From: a plasmid
Strand: one strand, 5' to 3'
Length of the DNA stretch: 64,000 bases
Sequence record: NZ_CP040051.1
Every line of letters starts with the position of its first letter. Within the stretch, counting starts at the first letter, position 1. Below are positions 7,831-60,389 of this stretch, in pieces. A program made the position numbers and the translations under genes. Under the pieces are notes generated by a model that was not told where the DNA came from, did no database searches, and saw only the letters and a program-made list of their open reading frames with translations.

Positions 7831-8151
7831 ATGAGCCAAATTACATTTATTGCCCACGATGGTGCACAAACCAGCGTTGCAATCGAAGCGGGTAAGTCAC
7901 TAATGCAGTTGGCGGTTGAAAACGGTGTTGCCGGAATTGATGGGGATTGCGGTGGCGAATGCGCCTGTGGTACCTGCCACGTGATTGTCAGTGCTGAGTG
8001 GTCGGATGTTGCGGGTACGGCACAAGCGAATGAGCAGCAGATGTTGGAAATGACCCCAGAGCGTGCTGCCACCTCACGTTTGGCGTGTTGTATCCAAGTG
8101 ACCGATGCAATGGATGGCATGACGGTACATCTGCCTGAGTTTCAGATGTAA
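7831..8151 (+). CDS. [2Fe-2S] ferredoxin (putidaredoxin/adrenodoxin type)
   Basis: CGGECACGTCHV...C cysteine motif and about 106 aa, with a GGAG RBS. The ORF track start at 7801 is probably too early. Confidence 0.8.
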   Translation: MSQITFIAHDGAQTSVAIEAGKSLMQLAVENGVAGIDGDCGGECACGTCHVIVSAEWSDVAGTAQANEQQMLEMTPERAATSRLACCIQVTDAMDGMTVHLPEFQM

Positions 8152-8227
8152 CACGTCAGCTGTAACCCAGCGGATCAACCGCCTTAACAAACACACCTCG
8201 TCAACGATGCTCAGTCAGGAGACCATC

Positions 8228-9721: not shown

Positions 9722-9807
9722 GTATCAAAATAGGCGACAGAGGCATTTTGCAACTGTCGTCGGCAACAATTGATGCTGTGCATCAACCATGAACTGAGTG
9801 AATTCAT

Positions 9808-21927: not shown

Positions 21928-22257
21928 CTAAAAAATGACGGCACCCACCATAAAACACAATATTCCAAAAATAATCCAAGGCCAGATCTTTGTCTTCGGT
22001 TGTTCTAAATTCTGAGGATTATATTCCGTGTGTTCTAGCGATGTCGGTTGTGGAACACGGGTCTTTTTAGAGTAAGGTTGGTGTTTAGAGTAAGATAGTC
22101 CCGTACCTGGAATGCCGACACTGGTTCGCGTACCTTTTTTCCCAATATTTAGAGAAGCACCAGGTTTGCCAATGCTGGCACTGCTGATGCCTTTATGGGT
22201 CAGATTAATTTTAAAACCCGGGAATAATTTAATACTTTTACGAAATCTAAAACCCAT
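21928..22257 (-). CDS. DUF4236-like small protein with C-terminal TM helix
   Basis: 109-aa ORF with an N-terminal MGFRFRKSIKL.. motif reminiscent of DUF4236 and a hydrophobic tail. Confidence 0.45.
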   Translation of the reverse strand: MGFRFRKSIKLFPGFKINLTHKGISSASIGKPGASLNIGKKGTRTSVGIPGTGLSYSKHQPYSKKTRVPQPTSLEHTEYNPQNLEQPKTKIWPWIIFGILCFMVGAVIF

Positions 22258-22450
22258 ATTTCTCTCATTCTAAAACTTAGCTCAATTCACGCGCTATACC
22301 AGGATCCATGATCTGCTAGAGATCGTACTTTGACGGCTATCATCAGGATACTAGTATATTTTTTATCTGATGATTGCAATACTACCTTTAAATACCGTCA
22401 AAAATGTTTACTGTATATTTGCTGTAGGGTAATCTTAAAGCTGCTATTTA

Positions 22451-23332
22451 TTGACTGATTGGTATATGACGACAGATAAGCATGAAGTCCTGCTACGAAT
22501 GCGAGCCATCGAGCTGCTTGCTTACTGGGAAGGTCGTTTGGTTACCAATCGTTTGATGAGCTGGTTTGGGCTGAGTCGACAGCAGGCTTCTGCGGATATC
22601 AAGCGTTACAATACGCTGTATAACCCCGATGCCTTGATTCATGACCCCTCCGTAAAAGGCTATGTGCCTAAAGCCACGTTTCAACCGGTGCTGACTACCG
22701 TACATATCAATGAATATCTCAATATGCTCTCGGGCTTGGTCAGTGAATCGCATGCGCTGATTGCGATGCCAGAACCGAATCTTGCAGCAGTTCAATTACC
22801 TGATCGCAGTGTACGTCCTGAAGTGATTCGGGAAGTTTTGCGTGCCTGCCGCAACCAAAGTACTTTAAAAATGATTTATGCCTCGATGCAGAATCCGCAG
22901 TGGCATGAACGCATGATTTCCCCACATACCCTGGTGTATACCGGTTTTCGCTGGCATGTCCGTGCCTATTGCCATCAGAGCAAGCAGTTTAAGGACTTTT
23001 TACTCTCCAGAATTGATCGCACACCTGTTGTGGTGGCGATTGAGTCAGTAGACCCTGCTCAGGATCAGCAATGGCATGAAGAAATTCTACTGACGCTGAT
23101 CCCTAATCCAAAATTGAATGAAGCTCAAAAAGTGCTGGTCGAAAAAGACTTCGGCATGCCTGATGGCAGATTACAGATTCCGGTCAAAAAAGCCCTGGCT
23201 CACTATACCTTGCAGCGATATCAGGCCGCGATCACGCTGGCTGAGGCGGATGATGCCTTGAAATATCCCTTGGTACTACAACGCTCAGATATCGAAAAGC
23301 TGTCGTCTTACCTGTTTGATCAGGCCTCATAG
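22451..23332 (+). CDS. brxR: BrxR-type WYL-domain transcriptional regulator (HTH-WYL-WCX)
   Basis: 293 aa, positioned immediately upstream of brxA. An N-terminal HTH and a central WYL-like region (YTGFRWHVRAYCHQS) are present. Confidence 0.75.
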   Translation: MTDWYMTTDKHEVLLRMRAIELLAYWEGRLVTNRLMSWFGLSRQQASADIKRYNTLYNPDALIHDPSVKGYVPKATFQPVLTTVHINEYLNMLSGLVSESHALIAMPEPNLAAVQLPDRSVRPEVIREVLRACRNQSTLKMIYASMQNPQWHERMISPHTLVYTGFRWHVRAYCHQSKQFKDFLLSRIDRTPVVVAIESVDPAQDQQWHEEILLTLIPNPKLNEAQKVLVEKDFGMPDGRLQIPVKKALAHYTLQRYQAAITLAEADDALKYPLVLQRSDIEKLSSYLFDQAS

Positions 23333-23342
23333 GAGATTGACC

Positions 23343-23954
23343 ATGTTAGAACAATTTCATTATGACAGTGACCTGATTGGTGGCTCCCTGATGGTGCGTG
23401 AAAGCCGGCTGATCGCGGATCTGTTATTACGAGAAGCGACTCCAGAACAATGGCATCAGGCAATTCAGATTGACAATATTCTGCAAAAAAGAACGCCTGC
23501 TTCAGCCCAACGTAACGCCACTGCCATTCGTAAGCGTCTTGAGCGCTTAGAGCCTGATTTCTGGAAAGCACTACGTGATGGGGATGATGAGCTGGCGACC
23601 CAGGTGGCTTTTTGTGGTGCACTGGAACGCAACCTGTTGCTGCTTGAGTTTATGGAAACGGTGATGAGGGATGCCTATATCTCTCAGGCGCAACACTTGG
23701 ACAGTTATATCTGGTCAGATTTTTTGGATGAACGCTCACAACGTGATCCGGATATCTGTGATTGGAAAGAGTCCAGCAAGAAAAAAATGGGGCAGGTGGT
23801 GTTTCGCATGCTGGCAGAAGCCGGTTACTTAAAAAGTACCCGTAAGCTGGAGTTGCAGCGCGTGATCGTCAGAGCAGAGCTGCGTAGCCTGTTGGAAGAA
23901 CATTATAAACAACGCATTAAAAGATCTATGGAAGTGTCGCTATGGACGCGGTAG
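23343..23954 (+). CDS. brxA: BREX protein BrxA (DUF1819)
   Basis: About 200 aa, the first gene of the brxABC-pglX-pglZ-brxL array, with an AGGAG RBS. Start chosen at MLEQFHYD. Confidence 0.75.
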   Translation: MLEQFHYDSDLIGGSLMVRESRLIADLLLREATPEQWHQAIQIDNILQKRTPASAQRNATAIRKRLERLEPDFWKALRDGDDELATQVAFCGALERNLLLLEFMETVMRDAYISQAQHLDSYIWSDFLDERSQRDPDICDWKESSKKKMGQVVFRMLAEAGYLKSTRKLELQRVIVRAELRSLLEEHYKQRIKRSMEVSLWTR

Positions 23955-23970
23955 TTGTAGAGGGGCAGCA

Positions 23971-24546
23971 ATGAGTCAAACAATACATGAGCGTCTGAAC
24001 CAGATTCCAGAGCGAATTCTTTCCACTGAGTTTCTCACTGGACAAGGATTGGGCAATGAAATTGGCTTCTGGATTTTTGATTATGCGCCTGAAGATGAGT
24101 TGAAAGTGCGCGAATATCTGCATTTTCTAGACGGGATGCTAGAGAAAAAACACAGTCAGCTGAAGGTGGTGAATATCAACCTGCTGCAAGCCGTGGTGGA
24201 CTATCTGGCTGAGCGTAACTTCATCGATAAAGCTATTCAAATGCAAAAAGCCAAAGGCGATGAGGTGCTGCTCAAAGCGCTGAAAGGCCCACTGCATATG
24301 GATAAGTTCGCGCCCTATCTGGTGAGTAAATATGCCACCAATGCGCAAGATATTGTGTTGATGACTGGGGTTGGGTCGGTTTGGCCACTGTTACGTGCCC
24401 ATCACTTATTGAACAGTTTGCATTCGTTACTGGGACATAAGCCAGTGGTGCTGTTTTACCCAGGTTATTACGACGGTCAAGCGATGAGTTTATTTGGAAA
24501 AATTCCAAGCAACAATTACTACAGAGCATTCAGATTAGTGCCTTAA
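23971..24546 (+). CDS. brxB: BREX protein BrxB (DUF1788)
   Basis: 191 aa in the conserved position. Confidence 0.75.
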   Translation: MSQTIHERLNQIPERILSTEFLTGQGLGNEIGFWIFDYAPEDELKVREYLHFLDGMLEKKHSQLKVVNINLLQAVVDYLAERNFIDKAIQMQKAKGDEVLLKALKGPLHMDKFAPYLVSKYATNAQDIVLMTGVGSVWPLLRAHHLLNSLHSLLGHKPVVLFYPGYYDGQAMSLFGKIPSNNYYRAFRLVP

Positions 24547-24587
24547 ACACGGCAAATAGAAATAAGAATTCGGGGGAATGGATTGAG

Positions 24588-27500
24588 ATGAACATTAAAG
24601 AACTTTTTTACAAGCCATTAGATCGTGCAATTAACGGGGTGGTGAAGGCAGATCAGGATGATAATGCCACGGTTTACCAGGAGCTGGATGAGTACGTGGT
24701 CACCAATGAGCTGGAAAAGCATTTTCGTGACTTTTTCCAGTCCTATGGTACAGACCTCAGCGACCCTTCGATTGCCAATCGTGTCGGCGTGTGGATTTCT
24801 GGCTTCTTTGGTTCAGGTAAATCACATTTCCTGAAAACCTTGTCGTATATTCTGGCCAATAAAGTGGCACGTGACGCGGAAGGTAACGAACGCAGTGCTG
24901 CAGAATTCTTTGATGAAAGCAAAATCCGGGATGCGTTTATCCGTGCGGATATTGGTAAAGCGGTTAGTCATCATGCCGATGTCATCCTATTTAATATCGA
25001 CAGTAAAGCCAGCTCCAATGATGATGGTAATCCGATTCTGAATGTGTTTTTACGCGTGTTTAACGAATATCAGGGTTTTAGTGCCGATCATCCACATATT
25101 GCACATATGGAACGTCACCTGAGCCAGAAAGGGGTGTATGAGCGCTTTAAACAGGCTTTTGAAGAATCTAGCGGCATGTCTTGGCTAGAAGAACGTGACG
25201 GCTATCAGTTCTATCAGGATGATGTCGAAACCGCAATTTCCCAAGCCCTCAACTTATCAGCAGAAGCGGCACACAAGTGGTTTGAGGATTCTGAGCAGAC
25301 TTTTAGTGTTTCGGTCGAAAACTTCTGTCAGTGGGTGAAAGAATACCTAGACAGCAAAGGACCCCAGCAACGCATATTGTTTCTGGTGGATGAGGTGGGG
25401 CAGTTTATTGGCAGTGATACCCGCTTGATGCTGACACTGCAAACCATTACTGAAAACTTGGGTACGATCTGTAAAGGCCGCGCTTGGATTATCGTCACCT
25501 CACAGGCAGACATCGATGCTGTTTTAGGTGAGATGTCTTCTTCCAAAGCCAATGACTTCTCCAAGATTGCTGGACGTTTTAAAACCCGTTTATCGCTGTC
25601 CAGTTCAAATACCGATGAAGTCATCCAGAAACGTTTATTACGTAAAACCCCAGAAGCTGAAGCATTGCTCAGATCGGTGTTTGAGCAAAAGGGCGATATC
25701 TTAAAAAATCAGATTACCTTTGACCGTTCAGGCCCAACCCTCAAGAACTATGAGGGGCCAGACAGTTTTATTCATAACTATCCTTTTGCGCCGTACCATT
25801 TCCAGCTGGTGCAAAAAGTATTTGAAGAAATCCGTAAAGTCGGTGCGACTGGTGCACATCTGGCCTATGGTGAACGGTCCATGCTGGATGCGTTCCAGAT
25901 GGCCGCGAATGCGATTGCCACCGATGAAGTCGGTGCCCTGGTTCCTTTCCACCGCTTCTATACTTCAGTCGAAGGCTTCCTGGATACTGCAGTGAAGCGT
26001 ACCATCGACCAGGCAGGGCAGAATAAGACCCTGGATGGTTTTGATGTGCAGATGCTGCGTACCCTGTTCATGATCCGCTATGTCGATATCATCAAAGGTA
26101 CGCTGGATAACCTGGTGACTTTATCGATTGAGAAAATTGATGAAGATAAGCTGGCATTGCGCAAGCGGATTGAAGAGAGCCTGCAGCGTCTAGAAAAAGA
26201 GAGCCTGATTACGAGGAATGGCGATGAGTTCCTGTTCCTGACCAATGAAGAGCGGGACATTACCCGCAAAATTAAAGCCACAGACTTAGCAGCTTCAGAA
26301 GAAAATAAAGAGTTAGCCAATCTGATCTTTAAAGATTTACTGCGCGATCAGAACAAATACCGCCATCAAGCCAACAAGATGGACTATCAGATTGGTCGTT
26401 TTCTGGATGGTCATAGCCTGGATGGCAAGTATGAGAGTGATTTGAAAGTTGAAATCATTTCTCCACTGGATACGGAATACAACCTCTACACAGAAGCTTT
26501 CTGTATTGGTAAGAGCGCCGAGGCCGAAGGGCAGATACTGTTTAAACTGGCAGACGATAAACAGTTCTTTAATGAACTGCGCACCTGGCTGAAAACCAAT
26601 AAATTTATTCGGTTAAATGATGATGGCACTCAGTCCGATATCACCCGTATCCTGGCAGACCGTGGCCGTGAGAATCAGGAGCGTAAAAAACGTCTGCGTG
26701 TCCGGGTCGAAGAAATGTTGCTGGAGGCGGAAAGTTATGCCTTGGGGCAACATCTACAACTTTCATCTTCAAGTCCAACCACCAAGCTGGATGAGGCTTG
26801 TCGTTATTTGCTGGAAAACACTTATACCAAACTGAGCTATTTGCAGGTCTATCAGCAGGATGTCTGGCGTGAACTGAACGCCGTCTTGACTGTGGATGAT
26901 ATGGCGCAGCTCGGATTGTCTCTGGATGGCGGGCAGAGCAATCCGAAAGCCCTACAGGATGTCGAACAGTACATCTCGCTGCGTGCAACCGGTACCGAAC
27001 GTATTCTGGTGTCAGATGTGGTGGATCGTTTTGCCAAACGTCCTTATGGCTGGCCAGATGCCGAGATTTTACTGTTGGTGGGTCAGCTGGCTGCGATGGG
27101 GCGGATTTCACTGCAGTTAAATGGCGGCAGCTTACAGTTAAAAGATGCCTTTGAGCCTTTACAAAACAGCCGCCGTCGCCGTGATGTTTCCATTATTAAA
27201 AAGCGCCAGACTGATGATCAGGTATTGAAACAGGCACGCCAACTCACCCAAGACCTATTCTCGGCCATGGGACCAGCGACTGAGAAAGAGCTATTTGAAT
27301 TCTATTTGAAGCATTTTAAGACTTGGTTAGCCAACTTTAAGTCGTACAAAAGCAAAACAGATGTCGGGCAGTTCCCGGGCAAGAAAGTGATTGAAAAGTC
27401 GATTCTGACTTTGGAACGTCTGCTGGCGAATAGCGATAGCTTCGATTTCTTTAAGGCCGTGGTCGAGAACAAGGACGACTATTTGGATCTGGAAGAAGAT

Positions 27501-28268
27501 TATCGTGACATTCATGAATTCTTTAGCAACCAGATGCCAAGCTGGCAGCAACTGCAACAGGCCTTACGTCATTTTGAGAAAAACAAACAGGCGCTGGGCA
27601 GTGATGAGCTGGCGAAAAAAGCCCTCTCCGAATTACATCGCATTTCGACCACTGAATCACCCTATGGCCTGTTAAATAAAGTCGCTGATTTGGTTCGTAC
27701 AGTGGAAAGCGTCAATCAACGCTTGCTGACTGAAAAGCGCAGTCAGGCGCTAGAGCAAATTGATGACAAGATCAAGCAGCTGGAAGCCGAGATTAAAAAC
27801 AGTGGTATTGCCACCGCTGAGCTGAGTAACAAGCTACTGCGTCCGCTGCAATTGCTCAAAGCGGATATCGAAGTGGAAAGCAGCCTGTCCACCATCTATA
27901 TGCTGCAAACCCAAACCGCCATTGAACGTTTTGATGAAGCCTTATATGAGCTGGAACGAGAAGTTCAGGCTGAAATTCAGCGTCAGGCCAAAGCGGCACA
28001 ACTGGCTCAGAGCAAAGCAGAGAGTGTAACCAACACTGCAACCACCTCCAGCCCAGCAACATCAGAACCTGCTGCGATTCTGGTACAGCCTGCGACAGCC
28101 GTAGTGCCACCGAAACCAGTGGTGGAAGTCGATGTCGCCAGCATTTACAGCAAAACCTCCAGCAGTGTCTATCTGGAAACGGAAGAGTCAGTGGATCAGT
28201 TTGTAGAAGCACTCAAAGCTGAATTGAAAAAAATTGTGAGTGATAAAAAGCGTGTGCGTATCCGCTAA
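24588..28268 (+). CDS. brxC: BREX ATPase BrxC/PglY
   Basis: 1226 aa with an N-terminal P-loop GFFGSGKSHFLKT. Confidence 0.85.
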   Translation: MNIKELFYKPLDRAINGVVKADQDDNATVYQELDEYVVTNELEKHFRDFFQSYGTDLSDPSIANRVGVWISGFFGSGKSHFLKTLSYILANKVARDAEGNERSAAEFFDESKIRDAFIRADIGKAVSHHADVILFNIDSKASSNDDGNPILNVFLRVFNEYQGFSADHPHIAHMERHLSQKGVYERFKQAFEESSGMSWLEERDGYQFYQDDVETAISQALNLSAEAAHKWFEDSEQTFSVSVENFCQWVKEYLDSKGPQQRILFLVDEVGQFIGSDTRLMLTLQTITENLGTICKGRAWIIVTSQADIDAVLGEMSSSKANDFSKIAGRFKTRLSLSSSNTDEVIQKRLLRKTPEAEALLRSVFEQKGDILKNQITFDRSGPTLKNYEGPDSFIHNYPFAPYHFQLVQKVFEEIRKVGATGAHLAYGERSMLDAFQMAANAIATDEVGALVPFHRFYTSVEGFLDTAVKRTIDQAGQNKTLDGFDVQMLRTLFMIRYVDIIKGTLDNLVTLSIEKIDEDKLALRKRIEESLQRLEKESLITRNGDEFLFLTNEERDITRKIKATDLAASEENKELANLIFKDLLRDQNKYRHQANKMDYQIGRFLDGHSLDGKYESDLKVEIISPLDTEYNLYTEAFCIGKSAEAEGQILFKLADDKQFFNELRTWLKTNKFIRLNDDGTQSDITRILADRGRENQERKKRLRVRVEEMLLEAESYALGQHLQLSSSSPTTKLDEACRYLLENTYTKLSYLQVYQQDVWRELNAVLTVDDMAQLGLSLDGGQSNPKALQDVEQYISLRATGTERILVSDVVDRFAKRPYGWPDAEILLLVGQLAAMGRISLQLNGGSLQLKDAFEPLQNSRRRRDVSIIKKRQTDDQVLKQARQLTQDLFSAMGPATEKELFEFYLKHFKTWLANFKSYKSKTDVGQFPGKKVIEKSILTLERLLANSDSFDFFKAVVENKDDYLDLEEDYRDIHEFFSNQMPSWQQLQQALRHFEKNKQALGSDELAKKALSELHRISTTESPYGLLNKVADLVRTVESVNQRLLTEKRSQALEQIDDKIKQLEAEIKNSGIATAELSNKLLRPLQLLKADIEVESSLSTIYMLQTQTAIERFDEALYELEREVQAEIQRQAKAAQLAQSKAESVTNTATTSSPATSEPAAILVQPATAVVPPKPVVEVDVASIYSKTSSSVYLETEESVDQFVEALKAELKKIVSDKKRVRIR

Positions 28269-28315
28269 CTCGGGTTAGGGATATCGGCATCAGTCATTAA
28301 TTAAAGGTTTAAAGA

Positions 28316-31300
28316 TGAATACCAGTAATATTAAAAAATACGCACCGCAAGCACGTAACGATTTTATCGCAGCGATGCGCAAGCAGGCCGCCAAATATGG
28401 CATCACCGCAGACAGCATTTTACGGCTGAACAGAAAGGCGACTTGCTGCTGATTGGCGATCAGGTTTTTCCGCTATCAGTCATGAAACCACGTGACAAGC
28501 TGATCAAACGCATTCAAACCAGCAGTTTTGAGCAGACGATTGATTATATCGCTTACAGTTGGTTTAACCGTCTCTGTGCGATTCGCTACATGGAATGTAA
28601 AGGCTTACTGGATCATGGTCGTCGTGTGCTGAGTAGTGCCGATGGCAGTGCAGGCTTGCCACAGATTCTGGAAGAATGTCTGGATATTGACCTACCAGGT
28701 TTAGATGCCAGCCGTGTGGCTGAGCTTAAGCTGGATGGCAATAAAGACGAAGAGCTATATCGGGAGATATTACTGGCGCAGTGTCATGCTTTAAATCAAG
28801 TCATGCCACTCTTGTTTGAACAGGTTTCTGATGAGTCAGAACTGTTACTACCTGACAATTTAACCAAAACCGATTCCTTGATCCGTGATTTAGTGAGCAG
28901 CATTCCGGAAGAAGACTGGTCGGATGTACAGATTATTGGCTGGCTGTATCAGTTCTATATTTCTGAAAAGAAAGACCAGGTGATTGGTAAAGTCGTCAAG
29001 AGTGAAGACATTCCTGCCGCGACACAGTTATTCACCCCAAACTGGATTGTGAAGTATTTGGTGCAAAACAGTGTCGGTCGTTTATGGATGATGGCACAGC
29101 CTGATAGTACGCTGGCCAATAATTGGGAATATTATATTCAACCCGCTGAACAAACGGATGAGGTCAATGCACAGTTAAAACAGCTGATTGATGTGCGGAT
29201 CAGTGAAGATGGCGATACTTTAAACCCTGAAAGCATTACGGTACTCGATCCGGCCTGTGGTTCGGGGCATATTCTGGTGGAAGCCTACGATTGCTTAAAA
29301 GCGATTTATTTGGAACGTGGTTACCGCAGTCGTGATATTCCACGTTTGATTCTGGAAAACAACCTGTACGGGATTGATATTGATACCCGTGCCGCGCAGT
29401 TAGCCAGTTTTGCGCTATTGATGAAAGCGCGTGAGGATGACCGCCGTTTATTTAGCAATCCACCAAAACTGAATATTGTTGCGTTGCAAGACAGCCAACC
29501 TGAGCGTTTGGAAGCATTCAGTCAGGACTTGGCAAGTACTGGTATTGCGCAGGCAGATTTACAAGAATTACTGGATTTATTTGAACACTCTTCAACCTTT
29601 GGTTCTTTGATTCAAATCCCTGCAGCATTCGCTCATAAGCTGCCTGATTTAGAAAGCAAGCTGAATACAGCAGCAGCATCAGGCGATATCTTTAGTCAGC
29701 AGTCAGCACAAGAACTGTTACCGTTCGTTCAGCAAGCCATGTTATTGGCCAAACAATATGATGCTGTGATTGCGAATCCGCCGTATATGGGCGGTAAAGG
29801 CATGAACACAGCACTGAAAGATTTTGCTAAAAAGAAATTCCCTGACAGCAAGTCAGACCTATTTGCCATGTTTATTGAGCGTGGTTTTGGATGGTGTAAG
29901 GACAGTGGTTTCAATAGCATGGTGACCATGCAAAGCTGGATGTTCCTGTCCTCTTATGAAGCGATGCGTGAAAAGCTACTTTCCAATAATTCTCTTGTAA
30001 GCCTAATTCAATTACCTTATGACGGCAAAGGTCCAACAGCTATGGGAATTAGCTTTGGTATTTCTGTTTCTATTCTTCAGAAAAATAAAATTAATGGATT
30101 AATTGGGGATTTTGATTGCTTTAGGTATTTTGAACTCACAGAAGATGGCATCCCAAAACAATTCCCTAGTCTAAATGAACGTAATGTAAAAACGAAACCA
30201 GATGACTTTAAGAAAATTCCAGGAAGTCCTGTTGCTTATTGGGTGAGTGATAAGGTACGAGAAATTTTTGAAACTAGCTCTTCTTTAAATGATGTAGCAG
30301 ATGCTCGACAAGGTCTAGCTACTACAGATAACAATCGCTTCTTACGTTTATGGCAAGAAATTAATTTTCAAAGAATTGGTTTTAATATAAAAAATCGGGA
30401 ATATGCCCAATTGTCGGAGAAAAAATGGTTTCCACATAATAAAGGGGGGGAGTTTCGTAAATGGTTTGGTAATCAAGAATATGTAGTGAATTGGGAAAAT
30501 GATGGACAGGAAATAAAAGATAATATACTTTCCAGATACTCTTATTTAAAAACTCCTGATTTTGTTGCGAAAAATCAACAATTTTATTTTAAGAGTTCTG
30601 TGAGTTGGACTGCGATTACATCTGCTAAATTTTCTGCTCGACGAGATTTTGGTGGCTTTATTCCCTCAAATGCTGGAATGAGTGTTTATGCTGATAATGA
30701 CACATTAAAATTTTTAAATTCTTTGATGAATAGCATACTTTGCGATGCGTTCTTAAAAATTATTAGCCCTACATTAAATTTCGGTGCTGGTGACATTAGT
30801 AAGATTCCTTTGAAAGTAAATGAAACAAACAAATCAAAGATAAGCTATTTACATGATGAAGCTATTAAATTCTCCAAAATTGATTGGGACTCGTATGAAA
30901 CTTCATGGGACTTTACTCGAAACCCAATTATTCGTACTCAACAACCAAATCTAGAACAAGCATTTAATACTTGGCAACAGCAAAATACTAACGCCGTGGC
31001 TGAAATGAAACGTCTGGAAGAAGAAAACAACAAGCTGTTTATTGAGGCTTATGGTTTACAGGATGAACTCACTCCTGACGTACCAGATGAGCAAATCACT
31101 TTAACCCGTGCCAACCGTGAAAAAGACAGCCAGCGTTTAGTGTCTTATGCACTTGGTTGCATGATGGGACGCTATAGTCTGGATGAATCGGGTCTGATCT
31201 ATGCCCATGCAGGCAACCAAGACTTTGATGCCAGCCGTTATCAAACATTCCCAGCCGATGCAGACGGTATTATTCCACTCACCGAAATGCACTGGTTTGA

Positions 31301-31862
31301 AGATGATGCCACCCATCGTATCCAAGAGTTCTTAACTGCGGTTTGGGGTAAAGACACACTAGACGCTAATATGCTGTGGTTGGCAGAAAGCTTGGACAAA
31401 AAAGCCAGTGAAACAGCTGAAGATACCATTCGCCGTTACTTAGCCAGCAAGTTCTATAAAGACCACATGCAAACCTATAAAAAGCGTCCGATCTACTGGT
31501 TATTTAGCAGTGGTAAACAGGGGGCTTTCCAAGCATTGGTGTACTTGCACCGCTATAACGAAAGTACCTTGGCGCGTATGCGTACTGAATACGTCATGCC
31601 ACTGATTTCCAAAATGGCTGCCTATGCTAATTCTCTAGAAACAGCAAAAGAAAGCAGTGACTCTGCGGCTGAAATCAAACGCATCGAGAAAAAACTGCAA
31701 GATTTACATAAGCAACAAGCTGAACTGAGTAGCTTTGAAGAAAAACTGCGTCACTATGCTGATCAGCGTATATCACTGGATCTAGATGATGGGGTGAAAG
31801 TGAACTACGGCAAGTTTGGGGACTTGTTGGCTGAAGTGAAAGCTGTGACGGGGGAGAAATAA
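28316..31862 (+). CDS. pglX: BREX N6-adenine DNA methyltransferase PglX (BrxX). The reading frame is disrupted by a 1-nt frameshift about 42 codons in.
   Basis: ATG at 28316 encodes MNTSNIKKYAPQARNDFIAAMRKQAAKYGITADSILRLN and then hits TGA. The remaining 1139 aa continue in another frame (…QKGDLLLIGDQ…, WFNRLCAIRYM, NPPY motif VIANPPYMGGKG). Confidence 0.8.
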
Positions 31863-33799
31863 TGCAATTAAGAAGCCTAAATGAAATTTTTGAAAATCGA
31901 CTGATTCGGATCCCTGACTATCAAAGGGGATATGCATGGCGTAAACAACAACTTAAAGATTTCTGGGAAGACTTAACCTTACTTGAAGCAGATCGCGTTC
32001 ATTATACGGGGGTTATTACCTTAGAAGCAGTAGACCGTAAAACTTGGTCGAAGTGGGAAGACGATGAATGGCTGATTGATGATCTTGATTATAAGCCCTA
32101 CTTTGTCGTGGATGGTCAGCAGCGATTAACGACAGCGATTATTTTAATACAGGCGATTATTGAAACAGTTCCTGAAGGAAAAAGTATCGCAAATCAGTTT
32201 GTTTCTGATTTAAAGGCAAAGTTTGTTCAAAAAAAACCAACGGATGGCATTCGTGAAAGTTATATCTTCGGCTATGAAAAAGATAATCCAAGTGATGAGT
32301 TTTTAAGAACTAAAATTTTTGGTTTGCAGTCTCATACTAATCAATTGCAGGAAACGCTGTATACACGCAATTTATTCAATGCAAAGAAATTCTTTAAAGA
32401 AAAATTAGCGGAACTGAGCTTTGAAGAAATCACGGTTTTGTACAAAAAATTGACGCAAAAATTGCGTTTTAACTTGTATGAAATTGATGATGAGATCGAC
32501 GTATTTGTTACATTTGAAACCATGAATAATCGTGGCAAATCCTTGACCAATTTGGAATTACTGAAAAACCGATTGATTTATCTGTCGACATTATATCGTG
32601 ACAATCAGGGGCGTTCTAAGCTTCGAAAAAATATTAATGATGCGTGGAAAACCATTTATGAGTATCTAGGTAAAAATCCTGAAAAACCTTTGCCAGATGA
32701 TGAGTTCTTAAAGAACCATTGGATTATGTATTTCAAGTATAGTCGGGAAAAAGGGGATGATTATAAAAAATTCCTGTTGGATGAAAAATTTAATGCCCGT
32801 TGTATCACGCATCCAAAAAATGCCCAGGACACCTTGAAAATTGAAGAGATTCAGGATTATGTAGCAAGTCTTCAACAGTCTGTTATGAATTGGTTCTATT
32901 TACATAATCCTTATTTCCCAGTAGCAAATAATCTTTCTGATGATGAGCAATTATGGCTAGATCGACTAGGACGTTTGGGTTTTAATGCATTTAGACCTCT
33001 AATCTTAGCTGCTTATAATACCAATACTCCTGCAACCAAGATCTCTGAATTGCTGAAAGTTGCAGAGCGGTTTGCTTTTACTTTATTTAGTTTGAGTCAA
33101 CGACGTGCCAATACAGGAGACTCAGCAATTTATGGTTTAGCACGTGAGCTTTTAACCGGGAGAAACACAATCGATGCAACGATTAATTCAATAGAGGGAT
33201 TAATCACACGATTCTTTGATCCACATAACTATTTCACTTATATCGAAGACAAATACAAGTTTAGGGATGGATTCTACTCATGGAAGGGTATTCGTTATTT
33301 CCTTTATGAATATGAACATTATCTCAAAGAGAAAGGAAAGAATCCTACAACCAAATTAATGTGGAATGAGTTTACTGAAAGCTTGGAGGGTTATGTAACT
33401 TTAGAGCATATCTATCCACAAAAAGATACAGATCCATACTGGGTTAGTAAATTTGGCCATCTTGATGGGCAACAACGAAAATGGCTTACACATTCTTTAG
33501 GTAACTTATTGCCATTATCTCGTTCAAAAAATTCTTCATTACAAAATGACAGTTTTGATTTAAAGAAAAATAATGACGAAGGTATTGGATATTACAATGG
33601 ATCTGTTTCGGAAAATGAAGTCAATCTTAAGAATGATTGGACACCACAAGAAATCTTAGAACGAGGTCTAGAGCTACTTCGTTTTATGGAGGAAAGATGG
33701 GACGTTCAATTAGGAGATGAAGCATTTAAACGAAAACTACTTCACCTTGATAGTATCCAGATATTTGTTCCTCAAGATCAAAAAGAGGTAGTTGCATGA
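31862..33799 (+). CDS. brxU: GmrSD-family type IV restriction enzyme (DUF262 + DUF1524), BrxU-like
   Basis: DUF262 motif VVDGQQRLTT and a C-terminal His-Me finger LEHIYPQ. The start overlaps the pglX stop (TAATG) and the stop overlaps the pglZ start (ATGA). Confidence 0.8.
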   Translation: MQLRSLNEIFENRLIRIPDYQRGYAWRKQQLKDFWEDLTLLEADRVHYTGVITLEAVDRKTWSKWEDDEWLIDDLDYKPYFVVDGQQRLTTAIILIQAIIETVPEGKSIANQFVSDLKAKFVQKKPTDGIRESYIFGYEKDNPSDEFLRTKIFGLQSHTNQLQETLYTRNLFNAKKFFKEKLAELSFEEITVLYKKLTQKLRFNLYEIDDEIDVFVTFETMNNRGKSLTNLELLKNRLIYLSTLYRDNQGRSKLRKNINDAWKTIYEYLGKNPEKPLPDDEFLKNHWIMYFKYSREKGDDYKKFLLDEKFNARCITHPKNAQDTLKIEEIQDYVASLQQSVMNWFYLHNPYFPVANNLSDDEQLWLDRLGRLGFNAFRPLILAAYNTNTPATKISELLKVAERFAFTLFSLSQRRANTGDSAIYGLARELLTGRNTIDATINSIEGLITRFFDPHNYFTYIEDKYKFRDGFYSWKGIRYFLYEYEHYLKEKGKNPTTKLMWNEFTESLEGYVTLEHIYPQKDTDPYWVSKFGHLDGQQRKWLTHSLGNLLPLSRSKNSSLQNDSFDLKKNNDEGIGYYNGSVSENEVNLKNDWTPQEILERGLELLRFMEERWDVQLGDEAFKRKLLHLDSIQIFVPQDQKEVVA

Positions 33800-36420
33800 A
33801 TCTGGATCAATTACAAAAAGGTCTGGAACAGGCTTTCTACACTGAAAAACATCGAATTGTCTTCTGGTACGATGCGGAACAGTCATTTACTGAAGAAATC
33901 AAAGCCCTAGAGCTAAATGATGTCCAGATTCTGAATATGGCAGAAGAGTCGAGTCTGGCGATCAAGCTCAAACTGGAACTGCAAGATCAGCAGGGCAAAT
34001 ACCTGCTGTATTTCCCAAGTGCTGAGCCTGAAACCGAAAAAGACTGGTTACTGGACATCAAGCTCTATTCACGCAGCTTCTATGCCGATCGTTTCTCGAT
34101 TATTTTCAATGAGCTGGGTTTACAGCAGCAGAGTCTAAGAGAACATCTGGCCAAACGTGAAGAATTCCTCAAAGCCAAAGCTCGTCTGAGTACATTGAAA
34201 CGCTATATCCAGCCTGATGCAGATGAACAGAATCTGGATATGGCCATGATTGCAGCTGTGGTCAAGGCTGACAGTGCCGAACTCATGCATATCGTTCTGG
34301 CACTGGCAGATGAAATGGTACAGCAGAACCTGGCTCTGGAAGTCAATCCAGAATCCTTTGCTGAACTGGAAAAGTTCCAACTAGTGCCAGCTTTAGTCAC
34401 AGCATTACAGGCGGAAATTGGTTATCCAGCATCGGTTGAAGAATTGAATGGGGAAGCACCATTCAAGCTCGGTACGTTCTTTATCCGTTTGATGACTACA
34501 GGTTTCTGTGAAAGCTTGGGCGATATCCCCGTATGGGCTCAGGAACTGGTGATGTCATCCGTCAGCTCCCGTGCGACGGCTAGAGCCTTTTTGTCGCGCT
34601 GGAGAGACAGTTCTAAATACTACCCAACCTTCGATACACTCTCCCAGACCGTGGCAAATGCACTGCGGATCCAAGAAAAGGTCGGGGTCTTTGATCTGGA
34701 GCAACTGCTCGATGTCATGACTTTTGAAGTGATTGAACAAAAGATCATTGTCGATCTGGCCAGCCAGATCCCTGCAGCAACCAAAGCTGAACTGGAACAT
34801 TTCAGAACGATTATTTCTACACGTCTGGATGGCTATTGGGCTTCCAAACATAAGGACGATGCAACCCGCCGTAAATACCGTACCGTCTATACAGCGTTGC
34901 AGGCAGCGATTGAGCTGTTCAGTTTACGACTACAGTTTGATTCCGGTTTCTATTTTGACTCCAGCGAAGCCTTGTATAAAGCCTATGAACAGGAGCTGTA
35001 TCGCTTTGATATGGCCTATCGTCATTACAGTGCAGCCTCTCAGCGAGCTCATGTTGATATCCTGAAAAAACTCGATGAAGAAGTCGAAAATTGCTATTCC
35101 TACTGGTTTATTGATCACCTGGCACGAAACTGGGGGGGTCGGATTGAAGCTGAGCAACGCTTGAATGTCTGGAAAGTGGCAGATATCCCAAATCAGCAGA
35201 ACTTCTACGATACCCACGTCAGACCCTTACTCAATTCTGCAACGAAACGCCGTATTGTGGTAATTATCAGTGATGCTTTTCGCTATGAAGCTGCGGTAGA
35301 GCTGCGTGATCGTATCAATGAAAAGCGTTATTCCGAAGCGACCTTGTCTTCACAGCTAGGCGTTGTTCCAAGTTACACCACACTTGGCATGGCCTCGTTG
35401 TTGCCGCATCAGACTTTGGAGTACAAAGAGGCCGCAGGGGATGATGTTTTAGTAGATGGGCAGTCCAGCAAAGGGACTGCAGCACGATCCAAAATTCTGG
35501 CTGCCTATAATGGATTGGCGGTTACCGCTGAAACGGTAAAAGGTTGGTCGCGTGATGAAGGCCGTGAAGCGCTGAAAGATCATGAGCTGATTTACGTTTA
35601 TCACAACGTGATTGATGCTCGGGGAGACAGTGCCTCGACAGAATCAGAAACCTTTATGGCGGTGGAACATGCCATTGAAGAGCTGACTGAACTTAGCCGC
35701 AAAATCTTGATGCATTTCAATATTTCTACCCTGTTGATCACAGCCGACCATGGCTTCTTGTTCCAGCAAAGTAAACTGGAATCTGCGGATCGTTCAAGCT
35801 TGACTGAAAAACCGACCAATGCATTGAAAAGCAAAAAACGCTATGTGATTGGGCATGGTTTACCAGAGAGCAAAGAAGCATGGAAAGGCTCAACCCAAGC
35901 TACGGCAGGCACACGATCTGCGACTGATTTCTGGATTCCAAAAGGGGCGAACCGTTTCCATTTTGTAGGAGGCTCACGTTTCGTGCATGGCGGCATCATG
36001 CCTCAGGAAATCGTAGTGCCTGTACTAACGGTAAAACAGCTGCGTGGTGAAAAGGCTGGACAGCGGACCAAGCGTAAAGTTGAGGTCATTTCTACCAAAT
36101 CCACGCTGAAAATGGTCAATAACATCCAGAAGTTTGATTTGATGCAAACTGAAGCTGTCAGTGAGCTGGTCATGCCAGTGACCCTGTCGATTGCCATTTA
36201 TGATGGGGATATCAAAGTATCTAGTGAAGAAACCTTGACCTTTGATAGCAGTACCGACTCTGTTGCCGATCGGGTTAAACAGGTCAGGCTGTCATTGTCC
36301 GGTACTGATTTTGACCGTAAGAAGGATTACTTCCTAGTGCTGAAGGACAAAGACCTGAATATCGAAATGCAACGCTATAAGGTCACCATTGATCTGGCAT
36401 TTACCGATGACTTCTCCTGA
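33796..36420 (+). CDS. pglZ: BREX PglZ (alkaline-phosphatase superfamily)
   Basis: 874 aa in the conserved position between pglX and brxL. Confidence 0.8.
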   Translation: MNLDQLQKGLEQAFYTEKHRIVFWYDAEQSFTEEIKALELNDVQILNMAEESSLAIKLKLELQDQQGKYLLYFPSAEPETEKDWLLDIKLYSRSFYADRFSIIFNELGLQQQSLREHLAKREEFLKAKARLSTLKRYIQPDADEQNLDMAMIAAVVKADSAELMHIVLALADEMVQQNLALEVNPESFAELEKFQLVPALVTALQAEIGYPASVEELNGEAPFKLGTFFIRLMTTGFCESLGDIPVWAQELVMSSVSSRATARAFLSRWRDSSKYYPTFDTLSQTVANALRIQEKVGVFDLEQLLDVMTFEVIEQKIIVDLASQIPAATKAELEHFRTIISTRLDGYWASKHKDDATRRKYRTVYTALQAAIELFSLRLQFDSGFYFDSSEALYKAYEQELYRFDMAYRHYSAASQRAHVDILKKLDEEVENCYSYWFIDHLARNWGGRIEAEQRLNVWKVADIPNQQNFYDTHVRPLLNSATKRRIVVIISDAFRYEAAVELRDRINEKRYSEATLSSQLGVVPSYTTLGMASLLPHQTLEYKEAAGDDVLVDGQSSKGTAARSKILAAYNGLAVTAETVKGWSRDEGREALKDHELIYVYHNVIDARGDSASTESETFMAVEHAIEELTELSRKILMHFNISTLLITADHGFLFQQSKLESADRSSLTEKPTNALKSKKRYVIGHGLPESKEAWKGSTQATAGTRSATDFWIPKGANRFHFVGGSRFVHGGIMPQEIVVPVLTVKQLRGEKAGQRTKRKVEVISTKSTLKMVNNIQKFDLMQTEAVSELVMPVTLSIAIYDGDIKVSSEETLTFDSSTDSVADRVKQVRLSLSGTDFDRKKDYFLVLKDKDLNIEMQRYKVTIDLAFTDDFS

Positions 36421-36449
36421 TAACGAATTAACGATAGAGCGTAGCCTAC

Positions 36450-38489
36450 ATGGAATCTGCTAACGATAAAGAACTGGATCAGCTGCTGAATGAACACTTT
36501 GCTGGGCGGGTGGTACGTAAGGATCTGACTAAACTGATCAAAGAAGGGGCAAATGTCCCTGTCTATGTACTCGAATACCTGCTAGGGATGTACTGTGCCT
36601 CGGATGATCCAGAGATCATTGAACAGGGACTACGTAACGTAAAGACCGTACTGGCTGAGAACTACGTCCGACCGGATGAAGCCGAGAAGGTGAAATCCCT
36701 GGTCCGTGAACGGGGCAGTTATAAGGTCATTGATCGGGTGACTGTAAAACTGAATGAGCGTAAAGACAAATACGAAGCATCATTTAGTAATCTGGGCATC
36801 AAAGATGCCGAAATCTCGGCAGGCATCGTCAAAGAGTATGAAAAATTACTTGTTGGTGGTATCTGGGTCATTGCTACGCTCAGTTATTATTTTGAAGAAG
36901 GACAACCCAATTCTCCATTTGGGGTGAGCTTACTCAAGCCGATTCAAATGCCGAATATGAATATGGATGAACTCTTCAGTGGCAGAGCAGCATTAAGCAC
37001 GGATCAGTGGCGCGAGAGTTTAATCCGTTCGATCGGCATGGAACCGGCTTCGCTAAAAGAGGACGTGCAATGGCACCTATTAGCGCGTATGGTTCCGTTC
37101 GTTGAAAATAACTATAACGTTTGTGAATTGGGACCACGTGGTACCGGGAAAAGCCATATTTACAAAGAGTGTTCACCGAATAGTATTTTAGTCTCCGGTG
37201 GGCAAACCACTGTCGCCAATCTGTTCTATAACATGAGTAGCCGCCGTATTGGTCTGGTGGGGTTGTGGGATGTGGTGGCTTTTGATGAAGTTGCCGGTAT
37301 TTCCTTTAAGGACAAAGATGGCGTTCAGATCATGAAAGACTTCATGGCCTCAGGATCTTTTGCCCGTGGTCGTGAACAGATGGAAGCCTCAGCTTCGATG
37401 GTTTTTGTGGGTAATATTAACCAAAGTGTTGAATCCTTGGTGAAGACTAGCCACTTATTGGCTCCTTTTCCTGAAGCAATGATCGATTCAGCATTCTTTG
37501 ATCGCTTTCATGCCTATATCCCGGGTTGGGAAATTCCAAAAATGCGTCCGGAATTCTTTACTAACCGTTATGGTCTAATCGTTGATTATCTGGCTGAATT
37601 CTTCCGGGAAATGCGTAAGCGTAGTTTTGCGGATGCCATTGAGAAGTACTTTAAGCTCGGCAACAACCTGAATCAGCGCGATGTGATTGCCGTTCGCAAG
37701 ACGGTTTCCGGATTGATGAAGCTGCTCTACCCACACGGTCAGTTTAATAAAGAAGATGTACGCCTGTGTCTGGAATATGCACTGCAGGTCCGCCGTCGCG
37801 TCAAAGAGCAGCTGAAGAAAATTGGTGGCATGGAATTCTATGACGTTCATTTCAGCTATATCGATAATGATACCTTAGAAGAACATTTTGTCTCAGTCAA
37901 AGAGCAGGGTGGTGGCGGACTGATTCCAGATGGTCCAGCGAAACCAGGTTTTCTGTATACCATCGGACTCAGTAATAAAGGCATGCCTGGCTTGTATCGC
38001 TTAGAGCTTCAAGTCACCAAAGGCTCAGGTAAGCTTGCAACTTCAGGCCTCTGGAACTCCAGCAGTGCCAAAGAACAAGTCAAGATTGCCTTTGACTACT
38101 TCAAAGCGAACGCCTCTAGAATATCGGGTGGCAGCAAAGTCATGGAGCATGACTTCCATCTGCATGTGGTGGAATTACAGAATACCGGGCCACTTAGTCA
38201 TCTGGCTTTGCCGAGTCTAGTCGCTTTTGCTTCAGGCTTGCTCGGACGGTCAGTACAGAATCAGATGGTGGTCCTGGGAGATATGAGCCTGGGTGGAAAC
38301 GTCACACCGGTTGAAAGTATTGCTGAATGTCTTCAGGTTGCATTCGATGCCGGAGCCAAGAAAGTCGCTTTACCGATGAGCAGTGCGGCAGATATCCCAA
38401 CCATTCCAGTTGAACTATTTACTAAGTTCCAGACCAGCTTTTATGCAGATCCGGTAGATGCTGTGTTTAAGGGGCTAGGGGTGGATTAA
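36450..38489 (+). CDS. brxL: BREX Lon-like protease BrxL
   Basis: 679 aa, the last gene of the array. Lon-like ATPase/protease fold signatures are present (GPRGTGKSH). Confidence 0.8.
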   Translation: MESANDKELDQLLNEHFAGRVVRKDLTKLIKEGANVPVYVLEYLLGMYCASDDPEIIEQGLRNVKTVLAENYVRPDEAEKVKSLVRERGSYKVIDRVTVKLNERKDKYEASFSNLGIKDAEISAGIVKEYEKLLVGGIWVIATLSYYFEEGQPNSPFGVSLLKPIQMPNMNMDELFSGRAALSTDQWRESLIRSIGMEPASLKEDVQWHLLARMVPFVENNYNVCELGPRGTGKSHIYKECSPNSILVSGGQTTVANLFYNMSSRRIGLVGLWDVVAFDEVAGISFKDKDGVQIMKDFMASGSFARGREQMEASASMVFVGNINQSVESLVKTSHLLAPFPEAMIDSAFFDRFHAYIPGWEIPKMRPEFFTNRYGLIVDYLAEFFREMRKRSFADAIEKYFKLGNNLNQRDVIAVRKTVSGLMKLLYPHGQFNKEDVRLCLEYALQVRRRVKEQLKKIGGMEFYDVHFSYIDNDTLEEHFVSVKEQGGGGLIPDGPAKPGFLYTIGLSNKGMPGLYRLELQVTKGSGKLATSGLWNSSSAKEQVKIAFDYFKANASRISGGSKVMEHDFHLHVVELQNTGPLSHLALPSLVAFASGLLGRSVQNQMVVLGDMSLGGNVTPVESIAECLQVAFDAGAKKVALPMSSAADIPTIPVELFTKFQTSFYADPVDAVFKGLGVD

Positions 38490-38597
38490 TTTCATATCTG
38501 TCTGGAAGAGTTACAGTAGATTGTTTTAAATTCAGTTTCTCAAGTTAAACACCATGTTGTAAAAGCATAATACTGCCTCTTTTAAAGAGCTAGTATT

Positions 38598-38918
38598 TTA
38601 GGGGGGGATTACCGCTGCAGGTCGCAATTTTCCCCGATGTTCTATATAAAAATTCTCTGTTAGACGTTCAAAAAAATCATGTATATCTTGTGTAGTATTA
38701 TTTAATTGAGCAAAGACGTCCTTCAAAGAAAGCACATAAGCCTGAAAATTTTTAACTAGTATGTCGCTGTTTTTACATCCCCCATGACCATCCACTACGT
38801 AACAAAAATATAGATTTTCATTATCAGTAAGGTTCCCTACAGCATCGATTCCAAATTTTTCTGGTGCGCTAAGATTCTGACATAAGGAAAAGGAGTTTAT
38901 TAATATGCTTTTGGCCAT
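38598..38918 (-). pseudogene. N-terminal fragment of a PP2C-like Ser/Thr phosphatase
   Basis: Contains the PPM motif VVDGHGG. Only 106 aa, ending at a C7 tract. Confidence 0.45.
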
Positions 38919-39053
38919 TGTTTTATGATCGCTTGAATTACTTGTAAAGCTCTTTCTCTTGAGCCAAATCTACATTGATCTTCCATTATGATTTCAAAAT
39001 CAGTTAATTCAGTGAGTTTTTTAAATTGATCAGATAAGTAATCTTTGAGTTCT
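38919..39053 (-). pseudogene. 3-prime remnant of an unknown gene truncated by the IS6 insertion; its stop overlaps the PP2C-like start
   Basis: Open frame …ELKDYLSDQFKKLTELTDFEIIMEDQCRFGSRERALQVIQAIIKQWPKAY* runs from the IS boundary. Confidence 0.4.
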
Positions 39054-39873
39054 TGGCACTGTTGCAAATAGGGATCTGAGTCGATGATTTTCCCTTCAAA
39101 AAAGCTTAGAGACCGAAAACTCTATTTACTAGCCAAACTTCTCCTAGAATATTACCGTTATAAAATAATGAAGCTTGTCCTTTGCGTAGAGCACGCATAA
39201 CCTCAATACCTTTAATTGTGGCATAAGCCGTTTTCATAGACTTGAATCCCAACGTAGCCTTGATGATCCGTTTGAGCTTGCCATGATCACATTCAATCAC
39301 GTTATTCTTGTATTTAATCTGTCGATGCTCCAGGTCTTCAGGACACTTTCCTTCCTGTTTTAGTCGCGACAAAGCACGGCCATAGGTATGAGCCTTATCA
39401 GTGTTTATGACTCGTGGAATCTGCCATTTTTTGACATGATTCAAAATCTTACCAAGAAAACAATAAGCTGAATGGGTATTTCGTCTAGCAGAAAGATAGA
39501 AATCAAGAGTATGGCCACGTTGGTCAACTGCACGGTATAGATATGCCCATTTGCCATTCACTTTTACGTAAGTTTCATCCAGATGCCATAAATGTCGATC
39601 TGTAGGATTACGCCAATACCAACGTAAACGTTTTTCCATTTCTGGAGCATAACGCTGAACCCAACGGTAAATAGTCGTGTGATCAACATTCACACCCCGT
39701 TCGGCCAGCATTTCCTGCAGTTCACGATAGCTAATGCCATATTTACAATACCAGCGCACAGCCCAAAGAATGATTTCGCCCTGAAAATGCCGACCATGGA
39801 AAGGATTCATATGCTGCACCTTTAGCTAAAACAGTCTTCAGCTTACCATTCGTGGTTATTTGCAACAGTGCCA
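39054..39873 (-). mobile_element. IS6-family insertion sequence (IS1008/IS1006-like, divergent from copies 1 and 3), copy 2
   Basis: IRs GGCACTGTTGCAAATAG at 39054 and TTTGCAACAGTGCC ending at 39873. A 237-aa transposase. Confidence 0.9.
39106..39819 (-). CDS. tnpA: IS6-family DDE transposase
   Basis: About 90% identical to the copy 1 transposase. Confidence 0.9.
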   Translation of the reverse strand: MQHMNPFHGRHFQGEIILWAVRWYCKYGISYRELQEMLAERGVNVDHTTIYRWVQRYAPEMEKRLRWYWRNPTDRHLWHLDETYVKVNGKWAYLYRAVDQRGHTLDFYLSARRNTHSAYCFLGKILNHVKKWQIPRVINTDKAHTYGRALSRLKQEGKCPEDLEHRQIKYKNNVIECDHGKLKRIIKATLGFKSMKTAYATIKGIEVMRALRKGQASLFYNGNILGEVWLVNRVFGL

Positions 39874-43475: not shown

Positions 43476-43542
43476 CCTTCTATAATCCACAACTTTTTCT
43501 GAAGGGGTTTTAACCAGCTTGCCCCCATTTCTTTTACTTGGT

Positions 43543-60322: not shown

Positions 60323-60389
60323 ATATCAAGCGACTTCTCCTATCCCCTGGGAACACATCAATCTTACCGGAGAATATCGTTGGCCAAAG

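Follow-up and report, generated by a model that had tools for sequence, protein, structure and literature searches.

The locus treated here, a bacteriophage exclusion (BREX) operon with an embedded gene of the GmrSD superfamily, occupies positions 22451 to 38489 of a 64,000-nucleotide stretch of the plasmid record NZ_CP040051.1 (the whole stretch is called the window below), and several close relatives of it have been described. The nearest is the "ABCX-DUF262-ZL" cluster of Rafei et al. 2022 (FEMS Microbes, PMC10117892), found on pA297-3, pD46-4, and related plasmids of Acinetobacter baumannii, in which a DUF262 gene lies between pglX and pglZ. This is the same locus as the one in the window, which differs from it by a one-base deletion in pglX and by a downstream rearrangement bounded by IS1007. 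That study, which is comparative, reports a second related plasmid group without the DUF262 gene; brxR, the operator and the kind of protein that the DUF262 gene encodes are outside its scope. In the RefSeq annotation of these plasmids the genes are the same, with a "DUF262 domain-containing protein" in the gap between pglX and pglZ. The locus, the plasmid family that carries it and the combination of BREX with an embedded GmrSD-like gene have all been published and annotated before.

The second relative is the BREX system of Acinetobacter NEB394 (Luyten et al. 2022, NAR; PDB entries 7T8K/7T8L, 8EMC and 9ZDX), for which a single transcript, the gene requirements and methylation at GTAGAT were reported. 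Its gene order is the same as in the window apart from the embedded gene, as NEB394 has seven genes in 14.1 kb and nothing in the gap between pglX and pglZ, where the window has the embedded nuclease. The third is the plasmid pEFER of Escherichia fergusonii (Picton et al. 2021, 2022), which, like the window, has plasmid-borne BREX-1, a WYL-type BrxR and an embedded DUF262/DUF1524 enzyme (BrxU), and which provided the concept of two layers of defense. In pEFER, however, brxU lies between brxC and pglX and not between pglX and pglZ, brxS and brxT are present as a further difference from the window, and BrxR (7QFZ) is only distantly similar to that of the window (E = 8.7e-25). A preliminary description of the window had matched the locus to the BREX plus BrxU architecture of pEFER and of Acinetobacter. 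An embedded gene of the GmrSD superfamily is indeed present, but it resembles brxU only at the level of the superfamily and sits in a different position, and NEB394, although it has BrxR, is no precedent for an embedded nuclease.

Two further groups of proteins are the closest to the product of the embedded gene. HEC-06, a single-gene defense similar to GmrSD, and the window protein both have DGQQR and E-H-I-x-P motifs, lack RLFDS and are embedded in a larger defense system. They differ in that HEC-06 is found within Hma systems and has a model of ~570 positions, while the window protein is found within BREX and has 645 aa, and the similarity between them is moderate. HEC-06 defended Escherichia coli when cloned alone, with both the DGQQR and the EH motifs required, and had a phage range unlike that of BrxU, the two having 23.7% identity over 11% of the alignment (Payne et al. 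2024, 10.1101/2024.01.29.577857). DndI (9JFL) and SspE (6JIV) are the closest solved structures by both profile and fold and share the two-domain layout of the window protein, with ~17% identity to it. They are phosphorothioate-sensing nickases that need a partner modification system and, by sensing the phosphorothioate marks of the host, spare self DNA. Picton et al. and Payne et al. had already described the pattern of defense genes embedded in larger systems; what we add is the frameshift in pglX, the placement of the predicted enzyme in a branch near HEC-06 and DndI and not with BrxU, and the recurrence of its slot in at least nine genera.

Eight open reading frames (ORFs) on the same strand occupy positions 22451 to 38489, and hidden Markov model (HMM) searches of Pfam, PADLOC and NCBIfam gave strong matches for all of them (WYL, BrxA, BrxB, BrxC, BREX-1 PglX, GmrSD_N plus GmrSD_C, PglZ type A, and BrxL), far exceeding the library cut-off wherever the library sets one (PADLOC has no curated cut-off). 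The ORF map and these searches give the order brxR-brxA-brxB-brxC-pglX-(DUF262/DUF1524)-pglZ-brxL, as previously read from the letters, that is, the six core genes of BREX type 1 (brxA-brxB-brxC-pglX-pglZ-brxL) on one strand with one accessory gene between pglX and pglZ. The features of the locus are as follows.

22329 to 22402, no strand assigned: nested inverted repeats of ~74 bp, TTTGACGG/CCGTCAAA and GCTATCATCAG/CTGATGATTGC.
22392 to 22416, plus strand: BrxR operator, a 25-bp pseudo-palindrome, predicted by its match to the NEB394 target.
22466 to 23332, plus strand: brxR, wHTH-WYL-WCX regulator of 288 aa (Pfam WYL, 9e-15).
23343 to 23954, plus strand: brxA (DUF1819), 203 aa (Pfam BrxA, 9.6e-48; PADLOC BrxA, 3.4e-108).
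23971 to 24546, plus strand: brxB (DUF1788), 191 aa (Pfam BrxB, 1.7e-39; PADLOC BrxB, 4e-72).
24588 to 28268, plus strand: brxC, P-loop ATPase of 1226 aa (NCBIfam BREX_BrxC, 1285 bits).
28315 to 31862, plus strand: pglX, BREX-1 N6-adenine methyltransferase with an NPPY motif, 1182 aa once repaired, frameshifted in the window.
29978 to 30862, plus strand: variable low-GC segment of pglX of 885 bp, the presumed target-recognition region.
31862 to 33799, plus strand: embedded gene of the GmrSD superfamily, 645 aa (Pfam GmrSD_N, 1e-30; GmrSD_C, 3.8e-19).
33796 to 36420, plus strand: pglZ, PglZ type A of 874 aa (NCBIfam TIGR02687, 875.6 bits; Pfam PglZ, 1.1e-59).
36450 to 38489, plus strand: brxL, Lon-related AAA+ protein of 679 aa (Pfam BrxL_N, BrxL_ATPase and Lon_C; TIGR02653, 1174.6 bits).

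Using the definition of BREX type 1 by Goldfarb et al. 2015, we found the subtype-specific proteins well above their cut-offs, with NF033452 (PglX) at 1453.8 bits against 500 and TIGR02687 (PglZ) at 875.6 against 270. All of the motifs reported in the preliminary description were found. BrxC has its P-loop (Walker A, GFFGSGKS) at residue 72, and the repaired PglX has NPPY at residue 488. In the 645-aa protein, DGQQR lies in an N-terminal DUF262 NTPase domain (residue 84) and EHIYPQ in a C-terminal DUF1524 His-Me nuclease domain (residue 515). By these profiles, the locus is assigned to BREX type 1, with a gene for a WYL regulator of the BrxR type at the head of the operon. It had also been called complete, and this is correct for brxR and the five core genes other than pglX, all of which are full length, but not for pglX, which lacks one C at position 28424 and is split in two ORFs.

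Our overall identification, to which we give a probability of roughly 85%, is a BREX-1 system controlled by BrxR together with an autonomous DUF262/DUF1524 nuclease dependent on nucleoside triphosphates (NTPs), both co-expressed from the operon. By homology with the NEB394 system, one long transcript would start a short distance ahead of brxR, from a promoter overlapped by the operator at 22392 to 22416 and would be controlled by BrxR; PglX, with BrxA, BrxB, BrxC, and PglZ, would hemi-methylate a 6-bp non-palindromic motif on the host DNA, and all the BREX genes together, as restriction needs all of them, would block the replication of unmethylated phage DNA. The embedded gene would be translated as part of the operon and is most likely an autonomous, single-protein, NTP-dependent DNA nuclease that provides a second layer of defense. 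We predict its autonomy because homologs exist as standalone genes and because HEC-06 defends when cloned alone.

Several points weigh against this identification. Both the locus and the uncharacterized nuclease clade are known from sequence alone, and the nearest solved relatives of the nuclease, DndI and SspE, need a partner modification system, unlike autonomous type IV enzymes. AlphaFold modeling of the 645-aa protein reached a mean predicted local distance difference test (pLDDT) value of 66, with most of the nuclease domain below 50, which makes the fold comparisons weak, and, because of this low-confidence model (29 homologs), we treat fold matches other than that to DndI as uninformative. 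The specificity of PglX, in addition, probably differs from that of NEB394, and GTAGAT cannot be assumed to be the motif methylated in the window. The natural knock-outs of BREX that also count on this side are described below with the frameshift.

The affiliation of the operon is clearer. We assign it to the pA297-3/pD46-4 family of conjugative Acinetobacter plasmids and, because the BrxR proteins are ~95% identical, BrxC and BrxL are near-identical and the operators agree at 21 of 25 positions, we regard it as a close relative of the NEB394 system. The window BrxR aligns over 288 aa with that of PDB 7T8K (E = 1.4e-187), BrxC matches NEB394 9ZDX with 2639 bits and BrxL matches 8EMC with 1518.7 bits. 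The start of brxR is most likely the ATG at 22466 and not the TTG at 22451 that was taken mechanically, because the RefSeq annotation of pA297-3 and the crystallized BrxR agree on it. The predicted operator, ATACCGTCAAAAATGTTTACTGTAT, is ~50 bp upstream of this ATG and was identified by comparison with the crystallized NEB394 BrxR target, ATACCGTAAAAATAATTTACTGTAT; in five further BREX loci of Acinetobacter, an equivalent operator precedes brxR at the equivalent position. Inverted repeats at 22336 to 22377 had been considered as the operator and were dropped after the published operator was found at 22392 to 22416. The nested repeats at 22329 to 22402 are the apparent counterpart of a predicted stem-loop of ~70 bp that Luyten et al. 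2022 (NAR) described upstream of brxR in Acinetobacter NEB394. A scan for promoters and terminators gave 21 promoter-like sites versus 33.5 expected from shuffled sequence and was not used as evidence.

When positions 22000 to 39000 of the window were compared by megablast with the plasmid collection, 178 records were found, 177 of them from Acinetobacter. Full-length matches at 100.0% were obtained with Acinetobacter baumannii pD46-4 (CP048135, MF399199), pA297-3 (KU744946), and CP129246. Against pD46-4 the comparison shows one single-base gap and no mismatches, and against pA297-3 it shows that gap again along with a few mismatches.

The embedded gene is tightly integrated in the operon. As the preliminary description had noted, it overlaps the stop of pglX by TAATG (31860 to 31864) and the start of pglZ by ATGA (33796 to 33799), the latter overlap being kept in several genera, so that a gene of the GmrSD superfamily is truly built into the operon. 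Its GC content is 0.353, versus 0.45 to 0.48 (about 0.47) in the BREX core. The collinear locus of pHWBA8_1 lacks the gene and has a gap of 44 nt between pglX and pglZ, and the break in the alignment between the window and pHWBA8_1 coincides exactly with it. Since the gene is absent from this collinear locus and its GC content is below that of the core, we consider it a compositionally foreign insertion into the BREX backbone. The motif residues D84 to R88, E515, H516, P519, and Q520 are invariant in 29 homologs.

One possibility is that the embedded protein is a BrxU-type type IV enzyme that cuts phage DNA with modified cytosines (5-methylcytosine [5mC], 5-hydroxymethylcytosine [5hmC], or glucosylated 5hmC [glc-5hmC]) and forms a second layer like that of pEFER, in which case phages that evade BREX through modification of their own DNA would be caught by it. 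Both Pfam domains are shared with BrxU, as are DGQQR and the nuclease motif made of an acidic residue followed by His-I-x-P, the setting within a BREX-1 operon is comparable, and both GmrSD and BrxU are proven to be modification dependent. The similarity does not go further than this, though. BrxU (7P9K; PADLOC HEC-05) is in the PDB library, yet it was missed both by phmmer with E values up to 10 and by a profile of the 29 homologs with E values up to 1, and Foldseek, run with the predicted model, gave it only E = 0.13 and a query template modeling (TM) score of 0.22. No motif like RLFDS, which serves nucleotide binding and dimerization in BrxU, was found in the 645-aa protein by regular-expression search. 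The best PADLOC match was instead HEC-06 (PDLC04154; 1.4e-48, 164 bits), with residues 4 to 615 aligned to positions 12 to 566 of a model of 569, an assignment that means the nearest family and not strict membership, and the only PADLOC matches after it were the Orf5 and SspE models. Against PDB, phmmer found no match for the 645-aa protein at E = 0.001 and only a weak one to SspE with E values up to 10, while the 29-homolog profile matched DndI 9JFL (7.9e-11), two unnamed DUF262 entries and SspE (1.3e-06); DndI was also the leading Foldseek match (1.2e-09). Together with the different insertion slot and the phage range of HEC-06, which is unlike that of BrxU, this makes a BrxU-type activity a tentative proposal that we do not favor. 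On these comparisons the protein is best classified as a member of the GmrSD superfamily that is not an ortholog of BrxU and that falls in an uncharacterized branch near HEC-06 and DndI. The label "type IV" in the preliminary description derives from the family, and cleavage dependent on modification would be expected from the family only; the nearest solved relatives sense the modification of their own host instead.

The distribution of the gene points to an autonomous nuclease. The identical 645-aa protein is very common in Acinetobacter assemblies. We fetched 80 homolog loci from a genome collection with one representative genome per species, and 37 of them had a homolog at least 50% identical. 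In this set, the gene lies directly after pglX in a BREX-1 locus in 16 cases, which come from at least nine genera (Acinetobacter, Marinobacter, Colwellia, Dasania, Vibrio, Shewanella, Marinomonas, Photobacterium, and Pseudoalteromonas), and the slot is also occupied in loci whose BREX core (BrxC and PglZ) shares just 36 to 46% identity with that of the window. For the other 21, a few of which are on short contigs, no BREX gene was found within 10 kb. Among the 43 more distant homologs, none was embedded in BREX by the same test. Homologs that are 56 to 65% identical are standalone in Marinobacter, Aeromonas, and others, and no partner modification gene was found in the two standalone contexts that were read gene by gene. 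The homologs are therefore found either standalone or in the same BREX slot, a distribution that would fit a self-sufficient, single-gene defense that has repeatedly landed in, or moved between, the slots between pglX and pglZ. This recurrent occupancy is a reasonable lead for the study of embedded defense genes. Homologs in the same identity range, 56 to 65%, are also found right after pglX in BREX-1 loci (L010-L044 and L076), and some of the loci (L018, L020, L027, L034, and L076) have at least one further gene between the nuclease gene and pglZ.

The same data bear on the idea that the nuclease is a sensor of self marks coupled to BREX, similar to SspE and DndI, that would spare host DNA carrying the N6-methyladenine (m6A) marks of PglX and nick unmarked invaders. 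It would agree with DndI and SspE, and not BrxU, being the closest solved structures, with the fact that both read phosphorothioate marks of the host, with the tight coupling of the gene to pglX and pglZ, including the ATGA overlap kept across several genera, and with the reuse of the slot next to quite divergent BREX cores. Nevertheless, at least half of the close homologs have no BREX genes within 10 kb, no obvious methyltransferase partner is seen in the two contexts read, and the BREX backbone works without the nuclease, as in the seven genes of NEB394, loci of the pHWBA8_1 type also being without it. HEC-06, moreover, defended when cloned alone, DndI shares only 17% identity with the window protein, and the model used for the fold comparison has low confidence. 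The annotation of the matching plasmid regions, which cover the window, shows no phosphorothioation genes of the dnd or ssp type. We consider this explanation unlikely, and the probability left by it and by the BrxU-type enzyme is assigned to an autonomous enzyme that acts on another target. That the whole 645-aa clade in the slot between pglX and pglZ would be a BREX-coupled effector reading the m6A of PglX, and not an independent type IV enzyme, is more improbable still, although it would mean that these BREX variants gain a dedicated nuclease.

The most evident defect of the locus is in pglX. In the alignment, the window reads TTAC followed directly by GG where pA297-3 and pD46-4 have TTACCGG, and the C missing at 28424 shifts the frame at codon 37. 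The true start is the ATG at 28315, and the canonical N terminus (MNTSNIKKYAPQARNDF...) is left in an ORF of 45 codons (28315 to 28452) in another frame, while the longest ORF of pglX begins at 28443 (TTG) or 28482 (ATG) and ends at 31862, with 1139 or 1126 codons, respectively. This ORF matches the PglX profiles only from position 50 or 51 onward; NCBIfam BREX_1_MTaseX, for instance, aligns at profile positions 51 to 1210, versus 1 to 1210 for the gene of pA297-3, and the PglX/BrxX chains in PDB align only from their residue 53 or 54. Restoring the C at 28424 yields a protein of 1182 aa, as annotated in the relatives.

We think that the deletion is more probably an assembly artifact than a real mutation, because all three indels bear the signature of homopolymer under-calling. 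Three sites distinguish the window from pD46-4 over ~34 kb: a mismatch at 14334, a T missing from a run of T at 20063 and the C missing at 28424. Downstream, the sole indel with respect to pA297-3 is an A missing from a run of A at 43059. All three indels against these two plasmids (3/3) are one-base deletions within runs of identical bases. The one at 43059 splits an IS1008 transposase (42659 to 43477), whose twin copy at 4545 to 5365 is intact. An artifact is also favored because the frameshift products are off record and pglX is intact in most relatives. Exact look-ups of the 1126-aa, 1139-aa, and 45-aa products in a collection of 153 billion gene calls found none of them (the look-up of the 1139-aa product with its TTG start is weak, as its first residue may be stored as M and not as L), whereas the same collection indexes the identical nuclease gene in 387 blocks. 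In six of the seven shown contigs with the identical nuclease gene, pglX is uninterrupted and encodes 1182 or 1177 aa. A programmed frameshift or phase variation was rejected, the site being CC in a nonrepetitive context that lacks both a slippery heptamer and a repeat tract.

A genuine frameshift has the smaller share of the probability, although it is a possibility to be reckoned with. The deletion is, after all, present in the sequence as given, and natural knock-outs exist, so the frameshift could be real. Inactivation of BREX by insertion sequence (IS) elements or frameshifts is documented in this plasmid family, and Rafei et al. 2022 (PMC10117892) give examples of variants with a frameshift or an interruption, among them an "X-delta" plasmid, CP040051. 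In LFYW01000002 (L096), pglX is split by a DDE transposase into pieces of 413 and 778 aa, and in AP024803 (L095) an IS3-family element lies in brxL and the brxC call is shortened. In the growth tests of NEB394, lags were reported only for deletions of pglZ, brxB, and brxR and not for that of pglX. The change from CC to C is not one in a phase-variable repeat, however, and three one-base deletions of the homopolymer type in 64 kb, one of them in an IS1008 with an intact twin, together with shortened products that do not appear in a collection where the neighboring nuclease gene is so frequent, speak for an artifact. If the deletion were real, BREX would be switched off, with neither methylation nor BREX restriction and at most the embedded nuclease active, and the barrier to the entry of incoming DNA could drop. 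Both natural knock-outs, L095 and L096, keep an intact nuclease gene that is identical to that of the window.

Within pglX, the segment at 29978 to 30862 does not align with pglX of pHWBA8_1, while its flanks are 88 to 96% identical, and its GC content is 0.33, versus 0.45 in the flanks and 0.45 to 0.48 in the BREX core. Among Acinetobacter relatives with 92 to 99% identity in the other BREX proteins, PglX reaches only 71 to 81%. The segment is presumably the target-recognition region and, because of its low GC content, the lack of alignment to pHWBA8_1 and the divergence of PglX alone, we suggest that this specificity module has been swapped between loci.

The rest of the window belongs to the same conjugative plasmid backbone, with ISAcsp1 and IS1007/IS1008 present, and the mosaic resistance plasmid of the preliminary description is borne out. 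What that description read as alkane genes is a cluster of AraC, 2Fe-2S ferredoxin, cytochrome P450, and FAD-reductase genes at 6630 to 11022, and the resistance segment is strA-strB-ISVsa3(CR2)-sul2 at ~58684 to 63751, both as in pA297-3. A BREX system on large conjugative resistance plasmids of A. baumannii has a bearing on phage therapy and on the spread of these plasmids. Downstream of the operon, a copy of IS1007 (39106 to 39819, minus strand) precedes a rearrangement with respect to pA297-3 that is bounded by IS1007, and the DNA after 39873 lies ~40 kb away in that plasmid. Compared with pA297-3 and pD46-4, a SulP transporter, a 1682-aa AAA protein with its 462-aa neighbor and the mer operon are missing, and the plasmid of the window looks like a deletion variant mediated by IS1007.

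Between brxL and this IS1007 copy there is an ORF of 106 aa (38598 to 38918, minus strand), convergent with brxL and annotated as hypothetical in pA297-3, which had no match in Pfam or PADLOC. Directly upstream of brxR lie a DUF4236 gene (21928 to 22257, minus strand) and an AAA_14/DUF4143 ATPase (20424 to 21656, plus strand), the latter matching the PADLOC defense candidate PDC-S01 (E = 4e-150). Because the same arrangement upstream of brxR recurs in pHWBA8_1 and pAb-C63_1, this pair may be part of the same defense island as BREX.

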